Shown here: positions 586-33,288 of the stretch, piece after piece
How positions within the stretch are numbered: position 1 is the first letter of the stretch
Layout of the letters: the number at the start of each line of letters is the position of its first letter
NCBI GenBank assembly: GCA_964574145.1
Contig: CAZNKJ010000002.1
Coordinates: 2,075-66,074 of the forward strand
DNA from: an uncultured Candidatus Saccharibacteria bacterium
GTDB lineage: Bacteria; Patescibacteriota; Minisyncoccia; Phycocordibacterales; CAZNKJ01
Length of the DNA: 64,000 bases
Direction: 5' to 3'
Translations under genes and position numbers: made by a program
The notes under the pieces: model-generated
The model's database searches: none
Told to the model about the DNA's origin: nothing
The model's input: only the letters and a program-made list of their open reading frames with translations

Positions 586-693
586 ATGCCAGACCGCCTA
601 ACTACGTTGAGCCGTCTCGGTTGAGTATGCGTGTGGATAACTATCAACAGCAATAGTCATCAACGGTGGTTGCTCTCCAATCGTATTTATGCT

Positions 694-1095
694 TTACTTA
701 GTGTTGGTTAGAGGTTCTTTCTTGTTCCGATATTTTTTTGCCAGCGTTTTATACAGGCGACGTGTTTTGTCCATGGCGCAAAAGGCCAGCCGATTCTCGA
801 ATTGCGATACAAGGTCAGCGCATTTTTTTTGGATGCGTTTAGGGGTACGAATTAATAGTGCGCCCACAAGGGGAAGTATTCTCAGCACGATTCTAATAAA
901 CAAGAATAGCAATATGGCCTCTGCAATGAATGTTAGCCATGGATGCAGCGAAGCATTGATTATTATGCCGAGACCTGCAAGGAAAACGTGTAGTTCTTCA
1001 AGTTTTGTGATGATTGCTTGCGACATGGGATCGATCCTTTTAAGCAAGTGGTTTTCACAAGCCCTGGTGTTTGTTCGTAGCAAACACCAGGGCAA
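694..1095 (-). CDS. hypothetical small membrane protein (one or two TM segments), possibly starting at an internal Met
   Basis: 133-aa ORF with a hydrophobic stretch LAGLGIIINASLHPWLTFIAEAILLFLFIRIVL; more protein-like than the overlapping plus-strand ORF; lies between two copies of the palindromic repeat. Confidence 0.3.
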   Translation of the reverse strand: MPWCLLRTNTRACENHLLKRIDPMSQAIITKLEELHVFLAGLGIIINASLHPWLTFIAEAILLFLFIRIVLRILPLVGALLIRTPKRIQKKCADLVSQFENRLAFCAMDKTRRLYKTLAKKYRNKKEPLTNTK

Positions 1096-1137
1096 CTCAT
1101 TAGCCGCGAAATTGGGGTAGATTTAAGCAATACTCTA

Positions 1138-6907: not shown

Positions 6908-7993
6908 ATGAATATTTTTCTATTAGTAATACTTTTTCTAATTCTTGCAGCCAATGGTATTTTGATATGGTTTTTTTTGTGGGAAAGAAGGTTAAAAAAT
7001 CCTAAAGGCGATGGTATGGTTTTGCTTCAAAATCAACTCCAAGACCTTTCTCGAGTGCTGGATTCTAGAGTGGGGGATATTTCAAAACAGATGCAAAAGT
7101 CTGTGGAGACCCAGTTCAGTGAATCACAAAGAGTAATAAGGGATACTAACGATCAAATGGTTAGGCATCTAACCAGTGTTGCCAAGGGCGTTGCTGAAGC
7201 TGCAGAGGCGAGTAAACAGGTCTTTACTATTGCAGACCAGCTAAAAAATCTTGAGAGAGTTCTTACTCACCAAAAACATCGTGGAAATTTAGGTGAAGCA
7301 AGCCTAGAGCTTATTTTGAGCAATATTCTTCCAGCTACTGCTTATAAATCACAGTATAAATTTGAAGATGGTGATATTGTAGACGCGGCAATTATGACAA
7401 AAGAGGGGGTAATTCCTGTTGATGCAAAATTTTCATTAGATAATTACAATCGTCTCATAAATGAAGTAGATAAAGACAAAAAAATTCAATTGGAAAGAGA
7501 TTTTAAGAACGACCTTAAAAAACGTATAGATGAGACTGCAAAGTATATAAAACCAAAAGAGAACACTCTCCCGTTTGCTTTTATGTTTATTCCAGCAGAG
7601 GGGATTTATTATGATCTTTTGGTAAACGAAGTAGGGTCAGTCAAAGTAAATACTCGTAGTTTGATAGACTATGCATACAAAGACAGAAACGTTATTATCG
7701 TTTCTCCTACTACATTTGCGGCATATCTACAATCAGTATTGTATGGTTTTCGTGCTTTTAAAATAGAGGAATCGGCAAAACAAATCGGCAAACATGTGGA
7801 AGACCTTTCAAGACATTTAAAGAGTTATGATGAATATTTTAAAAAAGTTGGTAGTTCACTAGGAACTACGGTGAATCATTACAATTTTGCTCAGAAAGAG
7901 CTTGGAAAAATAGATAAGGATGTGGTTCGTATAACTGGGAACTCTATGGAAGTGGAAAATTTGTCACTTGAGCGTCCCGAGAAAGAAGGCTAG
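6908..7993 (+). CDS. rmuC: DNA recombination protein RmuC
   Basis: N-terminal TM and coiled coil, then RmuC core (HRGNLGE ... PVDAKF ... FMFIPAEG). Confidence 0.8.
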   Translation: MNIFLLVILFLILAANGILIWFFLWERRLKNPKGDGMVLLQNQLQDLSRVLDSRVGDISKQMQKSVETQFSESQRVIRDTNDQMVRHLTSVAKGVAEAAEASKQVFTIADQLKNLERVLTHQKHRGNLGEASLELILSNILPATAYKSQYKFEDGDIVDAAIMTKEGVIPVDAKFSLDNYNRLINEVDKDKKIQLERDFKNDLKKRIDETAKYIKPKENTLPFAFMFIPAEGIYYDLLVNEVGSVKVNTRSLIDYAYKDRNVIIVSPTTFAAYLQSVLYGFRAFKIEESAKQIGKHVEDLSRHLKSYDEYFKKVGSSLGTTVNHYNFAQKELGKIDKDVVRITGNSMEVENLSLERPEKEG

Positions 7994-15529: not shown

Positions 15530-15814
15530 ATGTCTTCAGTAGACAAAAACAAAGCTTTAAGTGTTAAAACTCAAGACATGAATAGAGCTATCGACTCGTT
15601 AAATGAAGAGATGAAAGCTGTAGACTGGTATCAACAAAGGGCTGATGTTACAACAGACGAGAACCTTAAAGGTGTCTTATTGCACAACATGAATGAAGAG
15701 TTGGAACATGCAGCGATGTTGATAGAGTGGATACGTCAACAAAGTCCTCAATTTAGTAAGGAACTAAAGAAATATCTTTTTAGTGATTCTGAGGATATTT
15801 CTAAAATGGAGTAG
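15530..15814 (+). CDS. EncFtn-like (encapsulated-ferritin-like) small four-helix protein
   Basis: 94 aa; EEMKAVDWYQQRADVTTDENLKGVLLHNMNEELEHAAMLIEWIRQQ resembles the Glu/His metal-site region of encapsulin cargo ferritin-like proteins, from memory only. Confidence 0.5.
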   Translation: MSSVDKNKALSVKTQDMNRAIDSLNEEMKAVDWYQQRADVTTDENLKGVLLHNMNEELEHAAMLIEWIRQQSPQFSKELKKYLFSDSEDISKME

Positions 15815-27766: not shown

Positions 27767-28513
27767 TTAAGTATAGCGCGGTGTGCTGACTGTTTCAGTT
27801 TTCATGTTTATCTCTCCAAACTGAGAATCTTGCTTGACTTCCAAGATCCCTCGTTTAACAAGTTCTAGCATCGCAAGAAAACTTATAATTATCGTCGCCT
27901 TTTTTTCTTTTGTTATTTTCTCACTTCTGCCAGCAAAATCATGGAAAGAGATAGAAAGATTTCGTGAAATTTTATCCGATAATTTTTCTATCATTTCCTC
28001 TAAACTAATTATTTTTTGTACTACCGTTTTTGCCAAAAGTTCCTTTTTTGGCAAATTTGTTAAGACTGATGAAATATGTGCATAAAGATAAGGAACAGAA
28101 CAAGTTTTATATGGAGAAAATACAGGCTCAACTTTTTGTAAGGATGATCTGGAAAAAAGAATAGTCTTGCCAAAATTTTGAATTAAGAACGGAGTAGTCT
28201 GCTTGAAGAGTTTATACAATTTAAGTCGTCTCTCCAGGTTTTCTATATCACCTTGTTCTTCTTCTGTGAGAGAGAGATTAGGTAATAAAGATTTGGACTT
28301 AATTAATAGAAGAGTAGATGCTACTAGAATAAAATGAGCAGACTCCCCTACTGGCATTTCTTCTTTTTCCTTAATGTGTGAAATATAATCATCTGTAACC
28401 GTAGCAAGAGAGATGTCGTTGATATGGAGTTTCCTTTTTTCTATTAGATGGAGGAGAAGTTCAAGAGGGCCTTCAAACACTTCAGTTTTTATCTGAAAAT
28501 TTTCCAAATCCAT
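27767..28513 (-). CDS. scpA: segregation and condensation protein A
   Basis: N-terminal FEGPLELLLHLIEKRKL kleisin motif; adjacent to scpB. Confidence 0.85.
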   Translation of the reverse strand: MDLENFQIKTEVFEGPLELLLHLIEKRKLHINDISLATVTDDYISHIKEKEEMPVGESAHFILVASTLLLIKSKSLLPNLSLTEEEQGDIENLERRLKLYKLFKQTTPFLIQNFGKTILFSRSSLQKVEPVFSPYKTCSVPYLYAHISSVLTNLPKKELLAKTVVQKIISLEEMIEKLSDKISRNLSISFHDFAGRSEKITKEKKATIIISFLAMLELVKRGILEVKQDSQFGEINMKTETVSTPRYT

Positions 28514-28612
28514 ACATAAACTATACGTTTTTTGTGGCTTTGATTCAAGGGATAAAAGATCAAGAAAACCTTCTTAAGAAAGTTTTGAATAATAAACATA
28601 AGAAAATTAAAT

Positions 28613-28642
28613 AGCGCGGATTCTTATTGGAGAATCCGCGCT
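28613..28642 (-). terminator. terminator hairpin agcgcggattc / gaatccgcgct downstream of the lipoprotein gene
   Basis: 11-bp perfect stem, 8-nt loop, AT-rich tail. Confidence 0.6.
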
Positions 28643-28663
28643 ATGGAAGCTTGAAACTTCCAT

Positions 28664-29167
28664 CTAGTTTGCAACCAGGCGCCATGTCCCGTTGGACTCT
28701 TGGCATGCTGTGGATGTGACATCCACAGATTTGTTGTCTCTGGACGAATTTTGTCCGAAGAAAAAGGCGTGGCTGTGAACTTTTTTACACGTTTTGCCTG
28801 AGGCAGAACGTCCTTCGTCAATTGTCCTGGAATTTCCATAAGAGCCCGTACGTGGGTTTTTCCACGTGATGTTGTTTCCAACGGAGGATTTGTAGGCTCT
28901 TTCCGCCGTTTGTTGGGCGTACAAGGCATCCGCCTTGTCGAGGGTATCTCCAACAGAGTTACCTATGCCAGCACCCAAGAGGGTCCCGATGGCGACTCCG
29001 ACCAACTGACCTTTTCCGCCACCGATGAAAGAGCCAGCAACAGCTCCACCGACAGCTCCTAAGACAGTTCCGACAGTTTGTTTTTGGCCCCAATTAGAGC
29101 CTTCATTTGCGCATCCTGCCAAAAAAAATGCCAAAATGCCAACCATCAAAAAACCAGACTTTTTCAT
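28664..29167 (-). CDS. lipoprotein with glycine-zipper domain (17-kDa surface-antigen-like)
   Basis: Lipobox LAGC; GAVGGAVAGSFIGGGKGQLVGVAIGTLLGAGIG glycine zipper; local GC about 60% against a roughly 35% background. Confidence 0.6.
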   Translation of the reverse strand: MKKSGFLMVGILAFFLAGCANEGSNWGQKQTVGTVLGAVGGAVAGSFIGGGKGQLVGVAIGTLLGAGIGNSVGDTLDKADALYAQQTAERAYKSSVGNNITWKNPRTGSYGNSRTIDEGRSASGKTCKKVHSHAFFFGQNSSRDNKSVDVTSTACQESNGTWRLVAN

Positions 29168-29257
29168 CTCCTTATCCTTTCATTTCATTTCAACCCAGAA
29201 TCAAAAAACTCGAGTACCGTTCAATAGCTTGCCATATTTAACATGAAAAGTCAATAC

Positions 29258-29578
29258 TTATGGTCTTATTAGAATGTCCTGAAAAAAAATAATCCTATCT
29301 TTCTTATCCAGCTTTATCCCCTCTTGCTGATAGAGTTTTAAACGTTTTTTGCGATATTTTTCATTCATCCAAACACGTCCGTCTGCATATACGATTCTAT
29401 GGAACGGAATATCATGTATTCCTCCATCATACGCTTTCCCAAGGATGGTAGTGATACTCTGTGCCGCCATAGCTCCTCCACCAGCAGCTCTCGCAATACC
29501 ACCATAAGTCATCACATGTCCCCGTGGAATAGATAGTGCAATTTTCAGAATATTTTCGGTAAAGGATTTTTGTTTCAT
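29258..29578 (-). CDS. alkyltransferase-like (ATL) protein: MGMT DNA-binding fold without the catalytic Cys
   Basis: MTYGGIARAAG ... IPFHRIV in place of PCHRV; 106 aa. Confidence 0.65.
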   Translation of the reverse strand: MKQKSFTENILKIALSIPRGHVMTYGGIARAAGGGAMAAQSITTILGKAYDGGIHDIPFHRIVYADGRVWMNEKYRKKRLKLYQQEGIKLDKKDRIIFFQDILIRP

Positions 29579-29614
29579 TCGGTGAATACTTATTTAGGTT
29601 GCCTTGAAATCTTT

Positions 29615-31279
29615 TTATATAAACAAGCGCGCTAGGCGGAGGTCTTCGTAGCTATATTTACCTTTTAGTTTTTTGTGTGCTGGAGAAAGTTTTGTTTCTT
29701 TTAAAGATTTAAATACCGACCTTATCGCCTTCAGGTCGGCCAGCTTTGGTGTATGTGGTTTTAGATCCACATCGTACTTCCCTACTTTTAGTTTTTCTAG
29801 GTGAGAAATAACAGTTCCCAAAGTCATCCCTCTTTCTTTTGCTACTTCTTTCAGACTTTTTCCTTCTTTTAAAAGAACGAGAGTTTTCTCATGTGATGGA
29901 ACTTTAGGCGTTAGCTTCTCAGCGCTGGATGTTTTGTTTTTTTCAATTTCTTTTTTGTCGTTTGTTCCGCTATTTTTCGTTATAAAATCCTCATGCATTT
30001 TCTGAAAATCTTCGGCACTAAATTTTTGTATCACTTTAGACCATTTTGTAGATTCGCGAATAAGCCGTTTGTTTAGTTCCAAAACGTAAGGGTCTACAGA
30101 GAGTGCCATATTGTTTAAACCAAGTAAAGTAAGCCCATCCAAGCTTTTTAAACGTGAAAGAGCCACATAACCTTGCCCGGGTACAAAAGATTTAGAAAGG
30201 TCAATTTCTGCCGCATCAAGGCTCATTCCTTGGCTTTTATGAACTGTAATAGCCCAAGCAAGACGTAGTGGCAGCTGCTCGGCTGAAGCAAGTACCTTGC
30301 CATCTTCTTCTATTTCCCATGTAGCTTGTGTTACAGATATTTCCTTTCCAGAATGAGTCTCAACCACAGGTACTCCGTGCTTCAAAGAGGTTACTATACC
30401 CAGTGTGCCATTTACATACCCCTCTTCAAAATTATTTTTAACAAACATAACAACAGCCCCCTCTTTAAGCTTCAAAGTTTCAGGTGCTAAAATGCTTTTA
30501 CAAAGTGAAGCTACTAGACTGGATTTCCCTCTTGTAGACATTTGGTATTCAAATTCCTCTTCCTCAAGTTTTTCTAATTCCTTTTCATTTACAGAATCAA
30601 CGTCAATGTTATGTGTGTACAAACGTGTGGGAGTTACTTTTGATTTTTTTCGCACACCCCTCATCTCTTCAAATATTTTTCTAGTAGTAGATGAGACAGC
30701 ACCGGAACGTATTTCATTTAAAATCTTTTCAAAAGAACGATCATCATTTTGCCGATATTGTTCCTCTAAGTAACATATACGTGCATTCATTTTCTTCCAT
30801 GCTTGTGAGCTGTCTACGTAAAAAACAGCATCTTCTCCCTTCACGATAGGTGGAAGTTGGAAGAAGTCTCCAGAAAGCACAATTTGCATACTACCAAATG
30901 AGTCATCATTTCCTTTCATAGCTCTGGCTAGTCTATCCAGCGCATCAAACATCCTTGGATTTATCATAGAAGTTTCGTCTATAATAAGAACTTTTGTTTT
31001 GTCGTATCTTTTCCAGAGATGTTCTTTTTGGGTGAGCATCTCAATATCGTAGTCAGACAGGTCGCTTTTTATTCCAATCCCACTCCATGAGTGAATAGTC
31101 ATACCATTGAGATGCGTAGCTGCAATACCTGTGGAAGCTGTCACGGCCACAACCACCCCTCTATCTTTCAAATATTCGGTATATTTGTTTAGTACGTGAG
31201 TTTTACCACTTCCTGCAGCGCCAGTAAGGTATACATTACGCCCAGCTTTAAGGATATCAAGAGCTTCTTTTTGTATCAT
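29615..31279 (-). CDS. PIF1-family 5'-3' DNA helicase with C-terminal helix-turn-helix domain
   Basis: Walker A GAAGSGKTHVL, VTASTGIAA, DETSM, PIF1-signature SGDFFQLPPI; C-terminal LKEVAKERGMTLGTVISHLEKLK HTH. Confidence 0.85.
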   Translation of the reverse strand: MIQKEALDILKAGRNVYLTGAAGSGKTHVLNKYTEYLKDRGVVVAVTASTGIAATHLNGMTIHSWSGIGIKSDLSDYDIEMLTQKEHLWKRYDKTKVLIIDETSMINPRMFDALDRLARAMKGNDDSFGSMQIVLSGDFFQLPPIVKGEDAVFYVDSSQAWKKMNARICYLEEQYRQNDDRSFEKILNEIRSGAVSSTTRKIFEEMRGVRKKSKVTPTRLYTHNIDVDSVNEKELEKLEEEEFEYQMSTRGKSSLVASLCKSILAPETLKLKEGAVVMFVKNNFEEGYVNGTLGIVTSLKHGVPVVETHSGKEISVTQATWEIEEDGKVLASAEQLPLRLAWAITVHKSQGMSLDAAEIDLSKSFVPGQGYVALSRLKSLDGLTLLGLNNMALSVDPYVLELNKRLIRESTKWSKVIQKFSAEDFQKMHEDFITKNSGTNDKKEIEKNKTSSAEKLTPKVPSHEKTLVLLKEGKSLKEVAKERGMTLGTVISHLEKLKVGKYDVDLKPHTPKLADLKAIRSVFKSLKETKLSPAHKKLKGKYSYEDLRLARLFI

Positions 31280-31342
31280 GAAAGATATTTTAACATATTA
31301 GACAAGGACCCAACTTAACAGGTTTCCAAATAAGTAAGTTCT

Positions 31343-31891
31343 TTATACGGGTTTTTGTTGTGAGATGTTCTTATCTTGAGATAAATTTGTTACGTCTTTT
31401 ATTAGTCCATTTGATATATAATATGTCTCTCCTTCCTCATTTCTTAACACTGTTGAACGCATAGTAATTCTGGATACTTTTCCTTCGAAACTTCCTATTT
31501 TCACTGTGTCTCCAATGCCATATTGGTTTTCAACTAAAATAAATAGTCCTGAAACAAAATCTTTTACCAATGACTGAGCGCCAAAACCAATAGCTAAACC
31601 TATCACACCAGCTCCTGCCAAAATTGGTCGTATATCTATTTTGAATAGACCCAAGACCATTAGTAAAACTATTCCGTAGATAATTATGTTTCCAGTTGTA
31701 ACAATAATTTCTCCAAGAGTTTTAGCCCTTTTTTCTTTTTGTGAAGTGTGAGAATCATCACCGTCGTCCACTATTTTAACAAGGCGGTTTACTACTAGTC
31801 TCAATAGAACTCTACCAAGAAAAAATAGAGTGGAAATTCCAATAATATCTACTGCATTTGCTTTAACAATATTGATTATAATTTCTTGCAT
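31343..31891 (-). CDS. small-conductance mechanosensitive channel (MscS family)
   Basis: GFGAQSLVKDFVSGLFILVENQYGIGDTVKIG ... ITMRSTVLR. Confidence 0.8.
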   Translation of the reverse strand: MQEIIINIVKANAVDIIGISTLFFLGRVLLRLVVNRLVKIVDDGDDSHTSQKEKRAKTLGEIIVTTGNIIIYGIVLLMVLGLFKIDIRPILAGAGVIGLAIGFGAQSLVKDFVSGLFILVENQYGIGDTVKIGSFEGKVSRITMRSTVLRNEEGETYYISNGLIKDVTNLSQDKNISQQKPV

Positions 31892-31908
31892 AGTATTTAA
31901 TTTATTTA

Positions 31909-33288
31909 TTAAAAATTCTCAACCAATTTAAGTAAAAACCGCACGGGCTCGCCTGCGGCGCCGGGAGCTAAATTGTCGCTTGGAATACTTTCCATACGAG
32001 GCGCGATATCAATATGTACCCACGGTAAGTCTCGTGCAAATTCATGTAGAAAAATTCCGCCATTTATAACACCGCCATATCTAGATCCCTTATGATTGAG
32101 GTTAGTCACATCTCCCCTGTTTCCCTTTACCTCTTCCTCATATTCTTCCCAAAGAGGAAAAGGCCACATGTAATCCCCTGTTTTTTCTCCGAGGTCTACG
32201 AACAGTTCTTCCAGTTTTTTATTTTTTGTCATTAAAGCATTTGTGCGTTGTCCTAAAGCAACAAGAGCAGCTCCTGTGAGGGTTGCCACATCTACAACAA
32301 GCCGTGGTTTGTATTTTCGAGAATAAGTAAGAGCGTCTGCGAGGATCACCCTTCCCTCTGCGTCTGTGTTCATCACTTCAATTGTCTTTCCGGACATTGA
32401 TTTGAGAACATCTCCAGGTCGATAGCTTTCCCCTCCTGGCATATTTTCAACAGCAGGAATAAGACCAATAATATTTTTCTTTACTTTCAATTTCGCAGCC
32501 AGAGTAATAGCGTTTATAACAGCAGCTCCACCTGACATATCTAAATGCATACCAAGCATGGAATCTCCTGGTTTTAAACTTAACCCCCCTGTATCAAAAG
32601 TGACCCCTTTCCCAATCAAGACTATTGGCTTTTCTTTACTCCCACCGTCGTAGTCCATGATTATTAAACGTGGCTCTTCTTTAGAACCCTTAGAAACGCC
32701 CAAAATGGCCCCCATTTTGAGCTTTTTAAGCTCTTTTGGTCCAAGCGAGGTTACCTTGATCTTGGTGCCTTTTACCGCCTTTTTAGCTTCTTCGGCGAGG
32801 ATTTTCGGAGTCATGTCACTTCCTGGAGTGTTTGCCAATTCTCGACAATTATTAACGCTGTTTCCAATTATTTGTCCCTTTAGGAAACCTGTTTTTATGA
32901 AGTCGCTTATTTTGCCAGTTACTACAATTTCCAATACTGTTGGCCAGCCGTCTTTTGGTTTTGTGCGAAATGTTGTAAATTCAAAATTCGCCATTTCAAA
33001 GTTTTGGGCAAGGAGAGATGCAATTTCTGTTTTATCAATTTTCTTGAGTTGAGGAAATAGAAAATCATCAAACGAAATGGCGATTCTCTTAATCTTATTT
33101 TGTTTCGCAGTTCGAATTATTTGACGTGCCAGCAGGCGTAATTTTCTGTATGTTATTTTCTCCTTTTTCTCTACGTTAATCTGTAAAACCGTCTGATCAT
33201 TTTTCTCAATGAGTTGTGTGTTACCACTTTCTGTTATTTTTACAGCAGGGATGTTTTTAGTTTTTTTATTAGAAAATAAGATTTTCAT
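31909..33288 (-). CDS. pepA: leucyl aminopeptidase (peptidase M17)
   Basis: NTDAEGRVILADALTY signature. Confidence 0.9.
   Translation of the reverse strand: MKILFSNKKTKNIPAVKITESGNTQLIEKNDQTVLQINVEKKEKITYRKLRLLARQIIRTAKQNKIKRIAISFDDFLFPQLKKIDKTEIASLLAQNFEMANFEFTTFRTKPKDGWPTVLEIVVTGKISDFIKTGFLKGQIIGNSVNNCRELANTPGSDMTPKILAEEAKKAVKGTKIKVTSLGPKELKKLKMGAILGVSKGSKEEPRLIIMDYDGGSKEKPIVLIGKGVTFDTGGLSLKPGDSMLGMHLDMSGGAAVINAITLAAKLKVKKNIIGLIPAVENMPGGESYRPGDVLKSMSGKTIEVMNTDAEGRVILADALTYSRKYKPRLVVDVATLTGAALVALGQRTNALMTKNKKLEELFVDLGEKTGDYMWPFPLWEEYEEEVKGNRGDVTNLNHKGSRYGGVINGGIFLHEFARDLPWVHIDIAPRMESIPSDNLAPGAAGEPVRFLLKLVENF

Follow-up and report, generated by a model that had tools for sequence, protein, structure and literature searches.

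The RT0821/Lpp0805 proteins of Alphaproteobacteria, which include the Rickettsia-type 17-kDa surface antigen, are lipoproteins of about 160 aa that combine a lipobox cysteine with the domains PF05433 and PF16998. SlyB, YfgH and YiaD, glycine-zipper lipoproteins found in the outer membrane of E. coli, have a 2TM hairpin rich in GxxxG motifs (PF05433, PF13441, PF13488); proteins of this type oligomerise and stabilise membrane nanodomains (bioRxiv 10.64898/2025.12.22.696046). Alkyltransferase-like (ATL) proteins, such as ATL/YbaZ of E. coli, Atl1 of S. pombe and vpAtl of V. parahaemolyticus (2KIF), consist of a single domain like the C-terminal one of MGMT; they bind O6-alkylguanine and recruit UvrA/UvrC, and their active-site Cys is usually replaced by Trp (PMC10779285). 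Human PIF1 (6HPT) and Bacteroides Pif1 (5FHD) share a Walker A motif, the Pif1 signature and a 2B domain.

Here we describe a Patescibacterial locus in which genes related to all of these lie side by side. A sequence-only reading of the DNA had taken the lipoprotein, ATL and Pif1 genes for one probable horizontally acquired block. We find that the lipoprotein is a real but ordinary single-gene transfer; the part of the claim that concerned ATL and Pif1, which have native composition and Patescibacterial homologues, did not hold.

A variable spot between LAP and ScpA

The DNA analysed, a stretch of 64 kb with a mean GC content of 36.1% (0.361; ‘the window’), belongs to an ultra-small, Kaiserbacteria-like member of the Patescibacteria (CPR) whose MraY is 58–69% identical to those of Kaiserbacteria and Paceibacteria MAGs. 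The order (AspRS/LAP)-ScpA-ScpB-S11-MraY-FtsW is present in all 80 relatives compared (family-level Patescibacteria, ±10 kb around MraY). At most 150 bp separate AspRS/LAP from ScpA in 48 of 63 loci, versus 3.4 kb in the window, where the interval holds four contiguous genes, MscS-Pif1-ATL-lipoprotein, all on one strand and separated by short gaps (Table 1). Lipoprotein, ATL and MscS genes were found at the LAP-ScpA junction in none of the 80 relatives within ±10 kb of MraY. The four genes are the filling of a lineage-specific variable spot.

Table 1. Features of the LAP-ScpA region (window positions).
Feature	Position	Strand	Description and basis
ScpA	27767..28513	-	Conserved downstream border; heads the conserved ScpA-ScpB-S11-MraY-FtsW run; Pfam and neighbourhood
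Intrinsic-terminator-like hairpin	28611..28644	-	14-bp perfect stem with 7 GC pairs, T-rich tail; ends the lipoprotein transcript
Lipoprotein gene, RT0821/Lpp0805 family	28664..29167	-	Pfam, homologues, GC/GC3, alignment
Intergenic leader of lipoprotein gene	29168..29257	-	Conserved block and Shine-Dalgarno sequence
Alkyltransferase-like (ATL/MGMT-family) protein	29258..29578	-	106 aa; PFHR replaces PCHR; no N-terminal domain
Pif1-family SF1B helicase with C-terminal HTH_40	29615..31279	-	554 aa; Pfam, homologues, PDB match
Small MscS-type mechanosensitive channel	31343..31891	-	First gene of the LAP-ScpA filling; GC3 0.21; Pfam
Leucyl aminopeptidase (LAP, M17)	31909..33288	-	Conserved; borders the variable spot on its upstream side; neighbourhood comparison

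The whole window contains no tRNA, Pfam detected no mobility domains in the adjoining genes, and between 28.5 and 31.9 kb the direct and inverted repeats are only short, low-identity, chance-like matches; no flanking direct repeats, which the sequence-only reading proposed to look for, stand out. The insertion route of the lipoprotein gene is thus unmarked by a mobility gene, a tRNA or a target-site repeat. Three assemblies, independent of one another, show the same junction: the window contig, Logan SRR6439372 and GCA_006243105.1.

The lipoprotein and its gene

The lipoprotein ORF encodes 167 aa and is the sole ORF of the window with a lipobox. Its signal peptide ends in the lipobox LAGC (N-terminus MKKSGFLMVGILAFFLAGC), and the cysteine concerned, Cys19, is invariant in an alignment of 83 sequences. 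Both the lipobox and the glycine zipper claimed earlier are present, with the glycine-zipper 2TM domain PF05433 at 28.6 bits (cut-off 24.2) and the C-terminal 17kDa_Anti_2 domain PF16998 passing marginally at 28.9 bits (cut-off 26.6). The same alignment shows ten zipper glycines (G33, G37, G41, G49, G51, G53, G61, G65, G69 and G73) and two cysteines of the C-terminal domain (C127 and C155) to be invariant, and the AF2 model has a pLDDT above 90 over most of residues 78–167.

Like the RT0821/Lpp0805 proteins, with which it aligns end to end at about 40–50% identity, the window lipoprotein keeps the invariant zipper glycines, a WxNP motif and both C-terminal cysteines. Unlike those of Alphaproteobacteria, it is the product of a Patescibacterial gene, its C-terminal domain is longer by an insertion of 7 residues, and it differs in this domain at near-invariant positions, among others Y126T, R128K, E129K, G152S and D159N. 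It deviates at eight of 46 highly conserved columns, where the family median is one, and is the most deviant of the 83 sequences; its function may therefore have changed or decayed. With SlyB/YfgH/YiaD it shares the zipper region alone, the C-terminal domain being different: the NCBIfam models YiaD and PRK11280 match partially, with scores well below the equivalog cut-offs (44 versus 175 bits). A PDB sequence search gave no more than a non-significant overlap, with the zipper part of a lipoprotein of the OmpA family.

By analogy, the protein would be exported and anchored through a lipid at Cys19 to the outer side of the cell membrane, with its zipper hairpin embedded in that membrane and mediating oligomerisation, as in SlyB/YfgH-type lipoproteins. 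Lgt and LspA were not among the roughly 40 window ORFs scanned.

The compositional peak on which the sequence-only reading had built is real: sliding GC across the whole window places the 80-bp maximum, 0.613 (61%) against the mean of 0.361, at 28971–29050 within the lipoprotein gene, and the 200-bp maximum (0.56) also falls in this gene. The gene as a whole has a GC of 0.496 (49.6%) and a GC3 of 0.488, where its amino-acid composition and the genome’s codon usage predict 0.435 and 0.271. About half of the GC excess thus comes from Gly/Ala-rich composition, so that the raw ‘60% GC’ overstates the foreign signal. GC3 itself lies about six binomial standard deviations above expectation (z = +2.6 among window genes). 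Expression-linked codon bias was ruled out, as the ribosomal-protein, tRNA-synthetase and other housekeeping genes of the window lack raised GC3.

The strong terminator ascribed to the gene was likewise confirmed (Table 1). Upstream, a block TATTGACTTTT...ATATGGCAAnCTATT at about 29223–29256, conserved with the sister genome L087 (see below), contains the hexamer TTGACT (29249–29254), and a Shine-Dalgarno sequence GGATAAGGAG lies at 29168–29177. The block looks promoter-like, and we regard it as a putative promoter; the TTGACT has no clear -10 partner, and a sigma-70 scan gave no more matches than shuffled sequence.

Relatives of the lipoprotein and probable timing of the transfer

Below an exact copy, the nearest homologues are 36–51% identical (best 120 of 660). 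The named matches among these 120 are Azospirillum, Micavibrio, Rickettsiales, ‘Proteobacteria’ and one Solirubrobacterales, that is, Alphaproteobacteria in all cases but one, and none of the 120 is Patescibacterial. The only plasmid matches were from Azospirillum and Skermanella, a search of a phage collection found no homologue, and a metagenome scan with the alignment of the window and L087 copies as query gave 71 pattern matches, none confirmed as a CPR copy of the lipoprotein. A literature search on horizontal transfer of lipoproteins in Patescibacteria returned nothing relevant. The closest match among the best 120, P0002, lies on a contig of 64% GC; another of the closest, P0004 (47% identical to the window lipoprotein in the search, 50% in alignment A1), lies on a contig of 62% GC that also carries a Tad pilus and a TRAP transporter. 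The accession numbers of the proteobacterial P0004 MAG (GCA_054033075.1) and the sister CPR MAG (GCA_054033095.1) lie near each other, so the two may share a study or a habitat.

Alphaproteobacterial affinity, the GC3 anomaly and absence from this locus in the 80 relatives support horizontal acquisition of the lipoprotein gene, and of this gene alone. The donor was most likely a GC-rich alphaproteobacterium, judging by named matches and their context.

The sister genome L087 (84% identical in Pif1, 82% in LAP, 89% in MscS) has an orthologue of the lipoprotein gene directly after ATL, 54% identical and truncated where the contig ends; its upstream block, position and orientation are as in the window. 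This copy is also GC-anomalous (GC 0.545, GC3 0.385). Divergence between the two genomes at four-fold sites is about 1.0–1.1 for LAP, Pif1 and the lipoprotein and 0.9 for MscS. An orthologue at the matching site points to the capture of one gene before the two lineages split. Synteny in related genomes and best hits within the lineage had been named in advance as observations that would speak against transfer: the best matches lie outside the lineage, in favour of transfer, but the gene is syntenic in the nearest relative, which tells against a very recent event.

Native neighbours: ATL and Pif1

No compositional anomaly extends across the four genes, GC3 z scores being +2.6 for the lipoprotein, +0.3 for ATL, +0.3 for Pif1 and -0.9 for MscS. 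ATL and Pif1, described earlier as moderately GC-rich, turn out not to be so: their GC is 0.389 and 0.386, respectively, and their GC3 0.31 in both cases, each +0.3 sd relative to window genes. Foreign affinity is likewise confined to the lipoprotein. ATL homologues are 62–77% and Pif1 homologues 58–84% identical, and every named match to either is Patescibacterial. By composition and homologues, ATL and Pif1 are both native Patescibacterial genes and not part of an imported block. MscS is native, by its composition and its orthologue in L087.

The helicase contains PF05970 (E 2e-40), the 2B domain PF21530 (E 4e-8) and HTH_40 (E 1e-19), and human PIF1 matches it at E 3e-69. It aligns with 6HPT and 5FHD over residues 9–406, including the Walker A motif (GAAGSGKT), the Pif1 signature (GDFFQLPPI, DALDRLARAMKGNDDSFGSMQIVLSGDFFQLPPI) and the 2B domain; unlike these solved chains, it carries a C-terminal HTH_40, as is typical of bacterial and Patescibacterial members. 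Signature and HTH were thus both rightly recognised in the sequence-only reading, but the HTH is not ‘extra’, since PF14493 occurs in all 120 of the best Pif1 homologues. A literature search on Pif1 with HTH_40 found nothing relevant.

The idea that a damage sensor, a helicase and an HTH form one unit finds neither a conserved neighbourhood nor a specific defence-model match. ATL and Pif1 are adjacent only in the window and L087, and in none of five other Pif1 contexts or 80 ATL-bearing metagenome loci (at least 15 of them with at least 2 kb of flank). PADLOC gave only partial, generic overlaps of Pif1 with the SF1-helicase/ATPase domains of much longer proteins and no match at all for ATL, the lipoprotein or MscS. 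We have dropped the ‘damage sensor + helicase’ system as unsupported. Most likely the two proteins would act independently, ATL binding alkylated or otherwise damaged DNA and Pif1 unwinding 5'-3' in replication or repair.

Origin of the lipoprotein gene

We consider it likely that the lipoprotein gene alone is foreign, the product of a single old capture, with MscS, Pif1 and ATL native. Under this explanation, the tight AspRS/LAP-ScpA junction would have turned into a variable spot in the window lineage, to which rearrangement would have brought Pif1 and ATL as housekeeping genes. The lipoprotein unit would be a monocistronic cassette (promoter-like block, Shine-Dalgarno sequence, ORF and strong terminator), captured from a Proteobacterium by the common ancestor of the window genome and L087. 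Since then the gene would have been vertically inherited, its codon composition drifting part of the way towards that of the host and its C-terminal domain diverging quickly.

Absence of all four genes from the LAP-ScpA junction of 80 relatives, their contiguity on one strand with short gaps, and the contiguous Pif1-ATL-lipoprotein run in L087 would also fit arrival of lipoprotein, ATL and Pif1-HTH together as one transferred DNA-surveillance or defence unit. We think this very unlikely given the native GC3 (0.31) of ATL and Pif1, their closest homologues (62–84% identical, all named ones Patescibacterial), the lack of adjacency in five Pif1 contexts and 80 ATL loci, the merely generic PADLOC overlaps of Pif1 and lack of any for ATL, and a lipoprotein gene with a promoter-like block and terminator of its own. 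An explanation that needs no transfer, in which the lipoprotein is native and GC-rich through its Gly/Ala-rich sequence or codon selection, can draw on the 43.5% GC predicted from amino-acid composition alone and on the homologue L170 from a proteobacterial genome of 41% GC, whose gene reaches 47% GC with a GC3 of just 0.31. It is nevertheless improbable: the GC3 of 0.488 against 0.271 expected, about six binomial standard deviations, goes beyond composition, GC3 is not raised in the window’s ribosomal-protein and other housekeeping genes, the gene is missing at the locus in 80 relatives, and the family has no Patescibacterial member among the best 120 of 660 and is annotated almost only in Alphaproteobacteria.

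That a proteobacterial fragment was mis-joined to a CPR contig might be suspected from the metagenomic source and the sharp local GC peak, but there is next to no chance of such a chimera or contamination when the junction is identical in all three independent assemblies named above, when a different organism, L087, has the orthologous junction and conserved intergenic block, and when the gene’s GC of 50% is intermediate against the donor-like 62–66%. In both copies GC3 is far from equilibrium, as would follow from recent, independent transfers into the two genomes, and transfer might also have run in reverse, from CPR to Proteobacteria. Position, orientation and upstream block are alike in both genomes, however, the two copies have diverged at synonymous sites as far as the flanking genes have, and the family spreads widely and deeply through the Proteobacteria and was found in only two CPR genomes (best 120 of 660), which makes these variants highly improbable.

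A single old capture gives a clean, datable case in which a CPR bacterium with a reduced genome has kept a cell-envelope gene of diderm origin: the transfer is older than a split of about one substitution per synonymous site, and adjustment to the host’s composition is still partial. Patescibacteria are usually considered to lack an outer membrane, and the finding raises the question of what role a glycine-zipper ‘outer-membrane’ lipoprotein has in such a cell. Transfers of this kind help to infer the partners and habitats of uncultivated Patescibacteria. It is conceivable, though unlikely, that the Patescibacterium, a presumed episymbiont, took this gene for an outer-membrane glycine-zipper lipoprotein from its own alphaproteobacterial host and remodelled the C-terminal domain, making the protein a surface factor that would engage the host envelope or insert into it; if so, the gene would give a lead on the host’s identity. 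The neighbouring accessions of the P0004 and sister CPR MAGs are one hint of this.

A conserved ATL variant

A by-product of the analysis is a conserved Patescibacterial ATL variant. That the gene upstream of the lipoprotein encodes a non-catalytic ATL is borne out by its match to PF01035 (E 4e-12, residues 6–88 of 106; best PDB match vpAtl, 2KIF) and by the motif IPFHRIV where alkyltransferases read IPCHRV. Like YbaZ, Atl1 and vpAtl, it has a single MGMT C-terminal-like domain with an HTH, Tyr25 and a P-x-H-R motif, and has lost the catalytic Cys (PMC10779285). Y25, present in all 120 family members, aligns with the Tyr of Atl1 and hAGT (the base-flipping tyrosine, AGT Y114). Unlike those three proteins, it has Phe in place of the usual Trp; across the family the active-site column reads Phe in 115, Tyr in three and Trp in two of 120. 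The arginine finger (AGT R128, Atl1 R39) also appears to be absent: the vpAtl Arg falls opposite A39 in hhalign and opposite Q40 in phmmer, and the Atl1 Arg opposite A39 in MAFFT, in a family where column 39 is Ser or Ala in 120 of 120 and column 40 Gln in 118 of 120. No uvr genes were seen in the annotated parts of the window, and a literature search on ATL in Patescibacteria found nothing relevant. This subfamily, very conserved across Patescibacteria and with neither the Cys/Trp nor the arginine finger, may use a non-canonical mode of DNA-damage recognition.

A probably foreign lipoprotein gene

The GC anomaly at the lipoprotein gene is real. Against 36.1% GC for the window, the 80-bp maximum of all 64 kb (0.613) lies at 28971-29050 and the 200-bp maximum (0.56) also falls inside this ORF, which as a whole has a GC of 0.496 and a GC3 of 0.488. 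The same protein recoded with the window's codon usage would be expected to have a GC of 0.435 and a GC3 of 0.271; thus roughly half of the excess reflects Gly/Ala content and roughly half a foreign-looking choice of codons. As the sequence-only reading had described, the product combines its lipobox with a glycine zipper (glycine-zipper 2TM domain, 28.6 bits, cut-off 24.2; 17kDa_Anti_2 domain, 28.9 bits, cut-off 26.6), and the gene has its own terminator. No other ORF in the window has a lipobox. Every gene from 23.9 to 35.8 kb lies on the minus strand.

Features located in the window
Feature	Coordinates	Strand	Details
ORF without Pfam match	156-549	minus	GC3 0.57-0.63
ORF without Pfam match	689-1120		GC3 0.48
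EncFtn-like (encapsulated ferritin) gene	15530-15814		94 aa; E 2e-35; adjoins ribosomal protein L9
Hairpin	28611-28644		perfect 14-bp stem, T-rich tail; 3' of lipoprotein gene
Lipoprotein ORF	28664-29167	minus	167 aa; signal peptide with lipobox LAGC; PF05433, PF16998

In a search of 5.8 billion proteins, the best matches to the lipoprotein, its own exact copy aside, share 36-51% identity. Where named, they are annotated as 'RT0821/Lpp0805 family surface protein', '17 kDa surface antigen' or 'glycine zipper 2TM'; the named ones among the best 120 come from Azospirillum, Micavibrio, Rickettsiales and 'Proteobacteria', one is labelled Solirubrobacterales, and none of the 120 is Patescibacterial. 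Matches in PLSDB were confined to Azospirillum and Skermanella replicons, and a phage search with the lipoprotein gave no match. Three of the closest homologues lie on contigs of 64% GC (P0002), 41% GC (P0003, 2.1 Mb) and 62% GC (P0004, next to Tad-pilus and TRAP-transporter genes).

The window lipoprotein can be aligned over its full length with the alphaproteobacterial RT0821/Lpp0805-type family and keeps every invariant zipper glycine, the WxNP motif and both C-terminal cysteines, but differs by a 7-residue insertion. It is the most deviant of the 83 aligned sequences, with changes in eight of 46 highly conserved columns, seven of which fall within the C-terminal domain (R128K, E129K, G152S, D159N and others). 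SlyB/YfgH-type glycine-zipper lipoproteins form oligomers that stabilise membrane nanodomains (bioRxiv 10.64898/2025.12.22.696046), and by analogy the window protein is predicted to be a lipid-anchored, membrane-embedded, oligomerising surface protein.

A variable spot and its inheritance

The window MraY matched 80 genome loci (58-69% identity), nearly all of which carry the label Kaiserbacteria, Paceibacteria, Parcubacteria or Patescibacteria. When mapped by tblastn, these loci share the order AspRS-(LAP)-ScpA-ScpB-S11 peptidase-MraY-FtsW; within 10 kb, none of the 80 carries the lipoprotein, ATL or MscS genes, and three have Pif1 several kb away. In 48 of 63 informative loci AspRS or LAP lies within 150 bp of ScpA, compared with a gap of 3.4 kb in the window, so that the four genes in this gap (MscS, Pif1, ATL and the lipoprotein) occupy a variable spot specific to the lineage. 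An assembly chimera is ruled out because the window junctions are identical in three independent assemblies of the organism.

A sister-genome contig, L087 (GCA_054033095.1), carries a Pif1 homologue at 84% identity in the order TrpRS-AspRS-LAP-FolB-hyp-GNAT-MscS-HAD-Pif1-ATL, followed by a 96-codon gene that ends at the contig edge. This fragment is the lipoprotein, with 54% identity to the window copy and the same lipobox; it also shares with that copy the intergenic block TATTGACTTTT...ATATGGCAAnCTATT and a conserved Shine-Dalgarno sequence. Divergence at four-fold sites is similar for the lipoprotein (1.11) and its neighbours (LAP 1.09, MscS 0.91, Pif1 1.02), and the gene has therefore been co-inherited with them since the two lineages split, which points to a probable single acquisition by the common ancestor of the two. 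In protein sequence, the lipoprotein and ATL (54% and 63% identity) are changing far more rapidly than Pif1, LAP and MscS (82-89%). The L087 copy is itself anomalous (GC 0.545, GC3 0.385; neighbours 0.25-0.33), which is consistent with a gene that came from a GC-rich donor and is still moving toward host composition.

At L087 6661-9957 (corresponding to window 31892-31908), the LAP|ScpA spot holds an extra FolB, a hypothetical gene, a GNAT acetyltransferase and a HAD hydrolase. The GNAT gene lies on the opposite strand and is also compositionally odd (GC3 0.465), and a 21-codon C-terminal fragment of LAP is duplicated at 7090-7152. The duplicated fragment suggests that the site has undergone insertions or rearrangements more than once. 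P0004 (47-50% identity) comes from a proteobacterial MAG of 62% GC, L171 (GCA_054033075.1), whose accession is close to that of L087. This suggests that both MAGs were obtained in one study, and perhaps from one habitat, a possible hint to the donor of the lipoprotein or to a host.

ATL and Pif1 as native neighbours

The identities proposed for the two upstream genes hold: the ATL is a 106-aa MGMT-domain protein with IPFHRIV where IPCHRV is expected, and Pif1 (554 aa) carries the GDFFQLPPI signature along with a 2B domain and, at its C-terminus, an HTH_40. Their supposed GC enrichment does not hold, the composition being ordinary (GC 0.389 and 0.386, GC3 0.31, +0.3 sd among the window's genes), and the HTH thought to be an extra is standard architecture, found in 120 of the 120 best Pif1 homologues. 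These share 58-84% identity and are nearly all full-length (~553 aa); the best 120 of 1119 ATL homologues (~105 aa) share 62-77%. Since these homologues are close and every named one is Patescibacterial (Kaiser-, Nomura-, Moranii- and Pacebacteria for the ATL), both are native genes, conserved within the phylum.

ATLs are defined by the C-terminal fold of AGT, with the N-terminal domain absent, and by an HTH that carries a tyrosine and an arginine finger; the catalytic Cys is gone, usually replaced by Trp (PMC10779285). The window protein has the AGT-type domain, the base-flipping tyrosine (Y25) is present in 120 of 120 family members, and Phe replaces the catalytic Cys in 115. By sequence alignment the arginine finger is missing: its column is A39 by hhalign and MAFFT (Ser/Ala in 120/120) or Q40 by phmmer (Gln in 118/120), in a comparison with Atl1 and hAGT references (MAFFT) and a vpAtl sequence from PDB (hhalign and phmmer). 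The protein is best described, on these alignments, as a member of a Patescibacterial ATL-like subfamily. This subfamily (P0121-P0240), to which the window ATL (29258-29578) belongs, is very conserved Patescibacteria-wide (62-77% identity across candidate phyla); the ATL in L087 has Arg at position 40.

Block, unit or single gene

The sequence-only reading had joined the three genes into a horizontally acquired block. Alphaproteobacteria-type matches and codon bias (GC3 0.488 versus 0.271) uphold this for the lipoprotein; native composition and Patescibacterial homologues speak against it for ATL and Pif1. It had further suggested a DNA-surveillance or defence unit. ATL and Pif1 are adjacent in the window and L087 only, with no ATL beside Pif1 in five other Pif1-bearing loci (L088, L089, L063, L070, L080). 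Scanning metagenomes with aligned Patescibacterial ATLs gave 80 loci with an ATL (~32 of CPR type, at least 15 with flanks of at least 2 kb), none of which contains Pif1 or the lipoprotein. PADLOC matched Pif1 only through generic SF1-ATPase overlaps with much longer proteins and gave no match for ATL, lipoprotein or MscS. There is also no tRNA or integrase gene, and no flanking repeat that convinces. Nothing therefore indicates that the genes were transferred, or function, as a unit, and neither the three-gene block nor the surveillance unit is supported. The anomaly is explained by a fairly old, single-gene horizontal acquisition of a proteobacterial surface lipoprotein, which would have been inserted at a variable spot in a Kaiserbacteria-like genome. 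Only a reading of the lipoprotein as a host-derived adhesin and the odd ATL subfamily could gain importance.

Other features of the window

ARAGORN found no tRNA genes in the 64 kb, despite dense ribosomal-protein and aminoacyl-tRNA synthetase genes, and no Rfam family reached the gathering threshold. The scanned neighbours of the EncFtn-like gene included no evident encapsulin shell gene. The first 1 kb (region 1-1300) has 47% GC against 36% for the whole window, and both GC3-rich ORFs there are flanked by copies of a palindromic repeat, GCTCCAAAGGTTTAACCTTTGGAGCTTAC, without an Rfam match. The 14-mer CCTTTGGAGCTTAC occurs six times, all within 1-1169 (0.35 expected by chance). The region resembles another small insertion, foreign or cassette-like, with hairpin repeats at its flanks.
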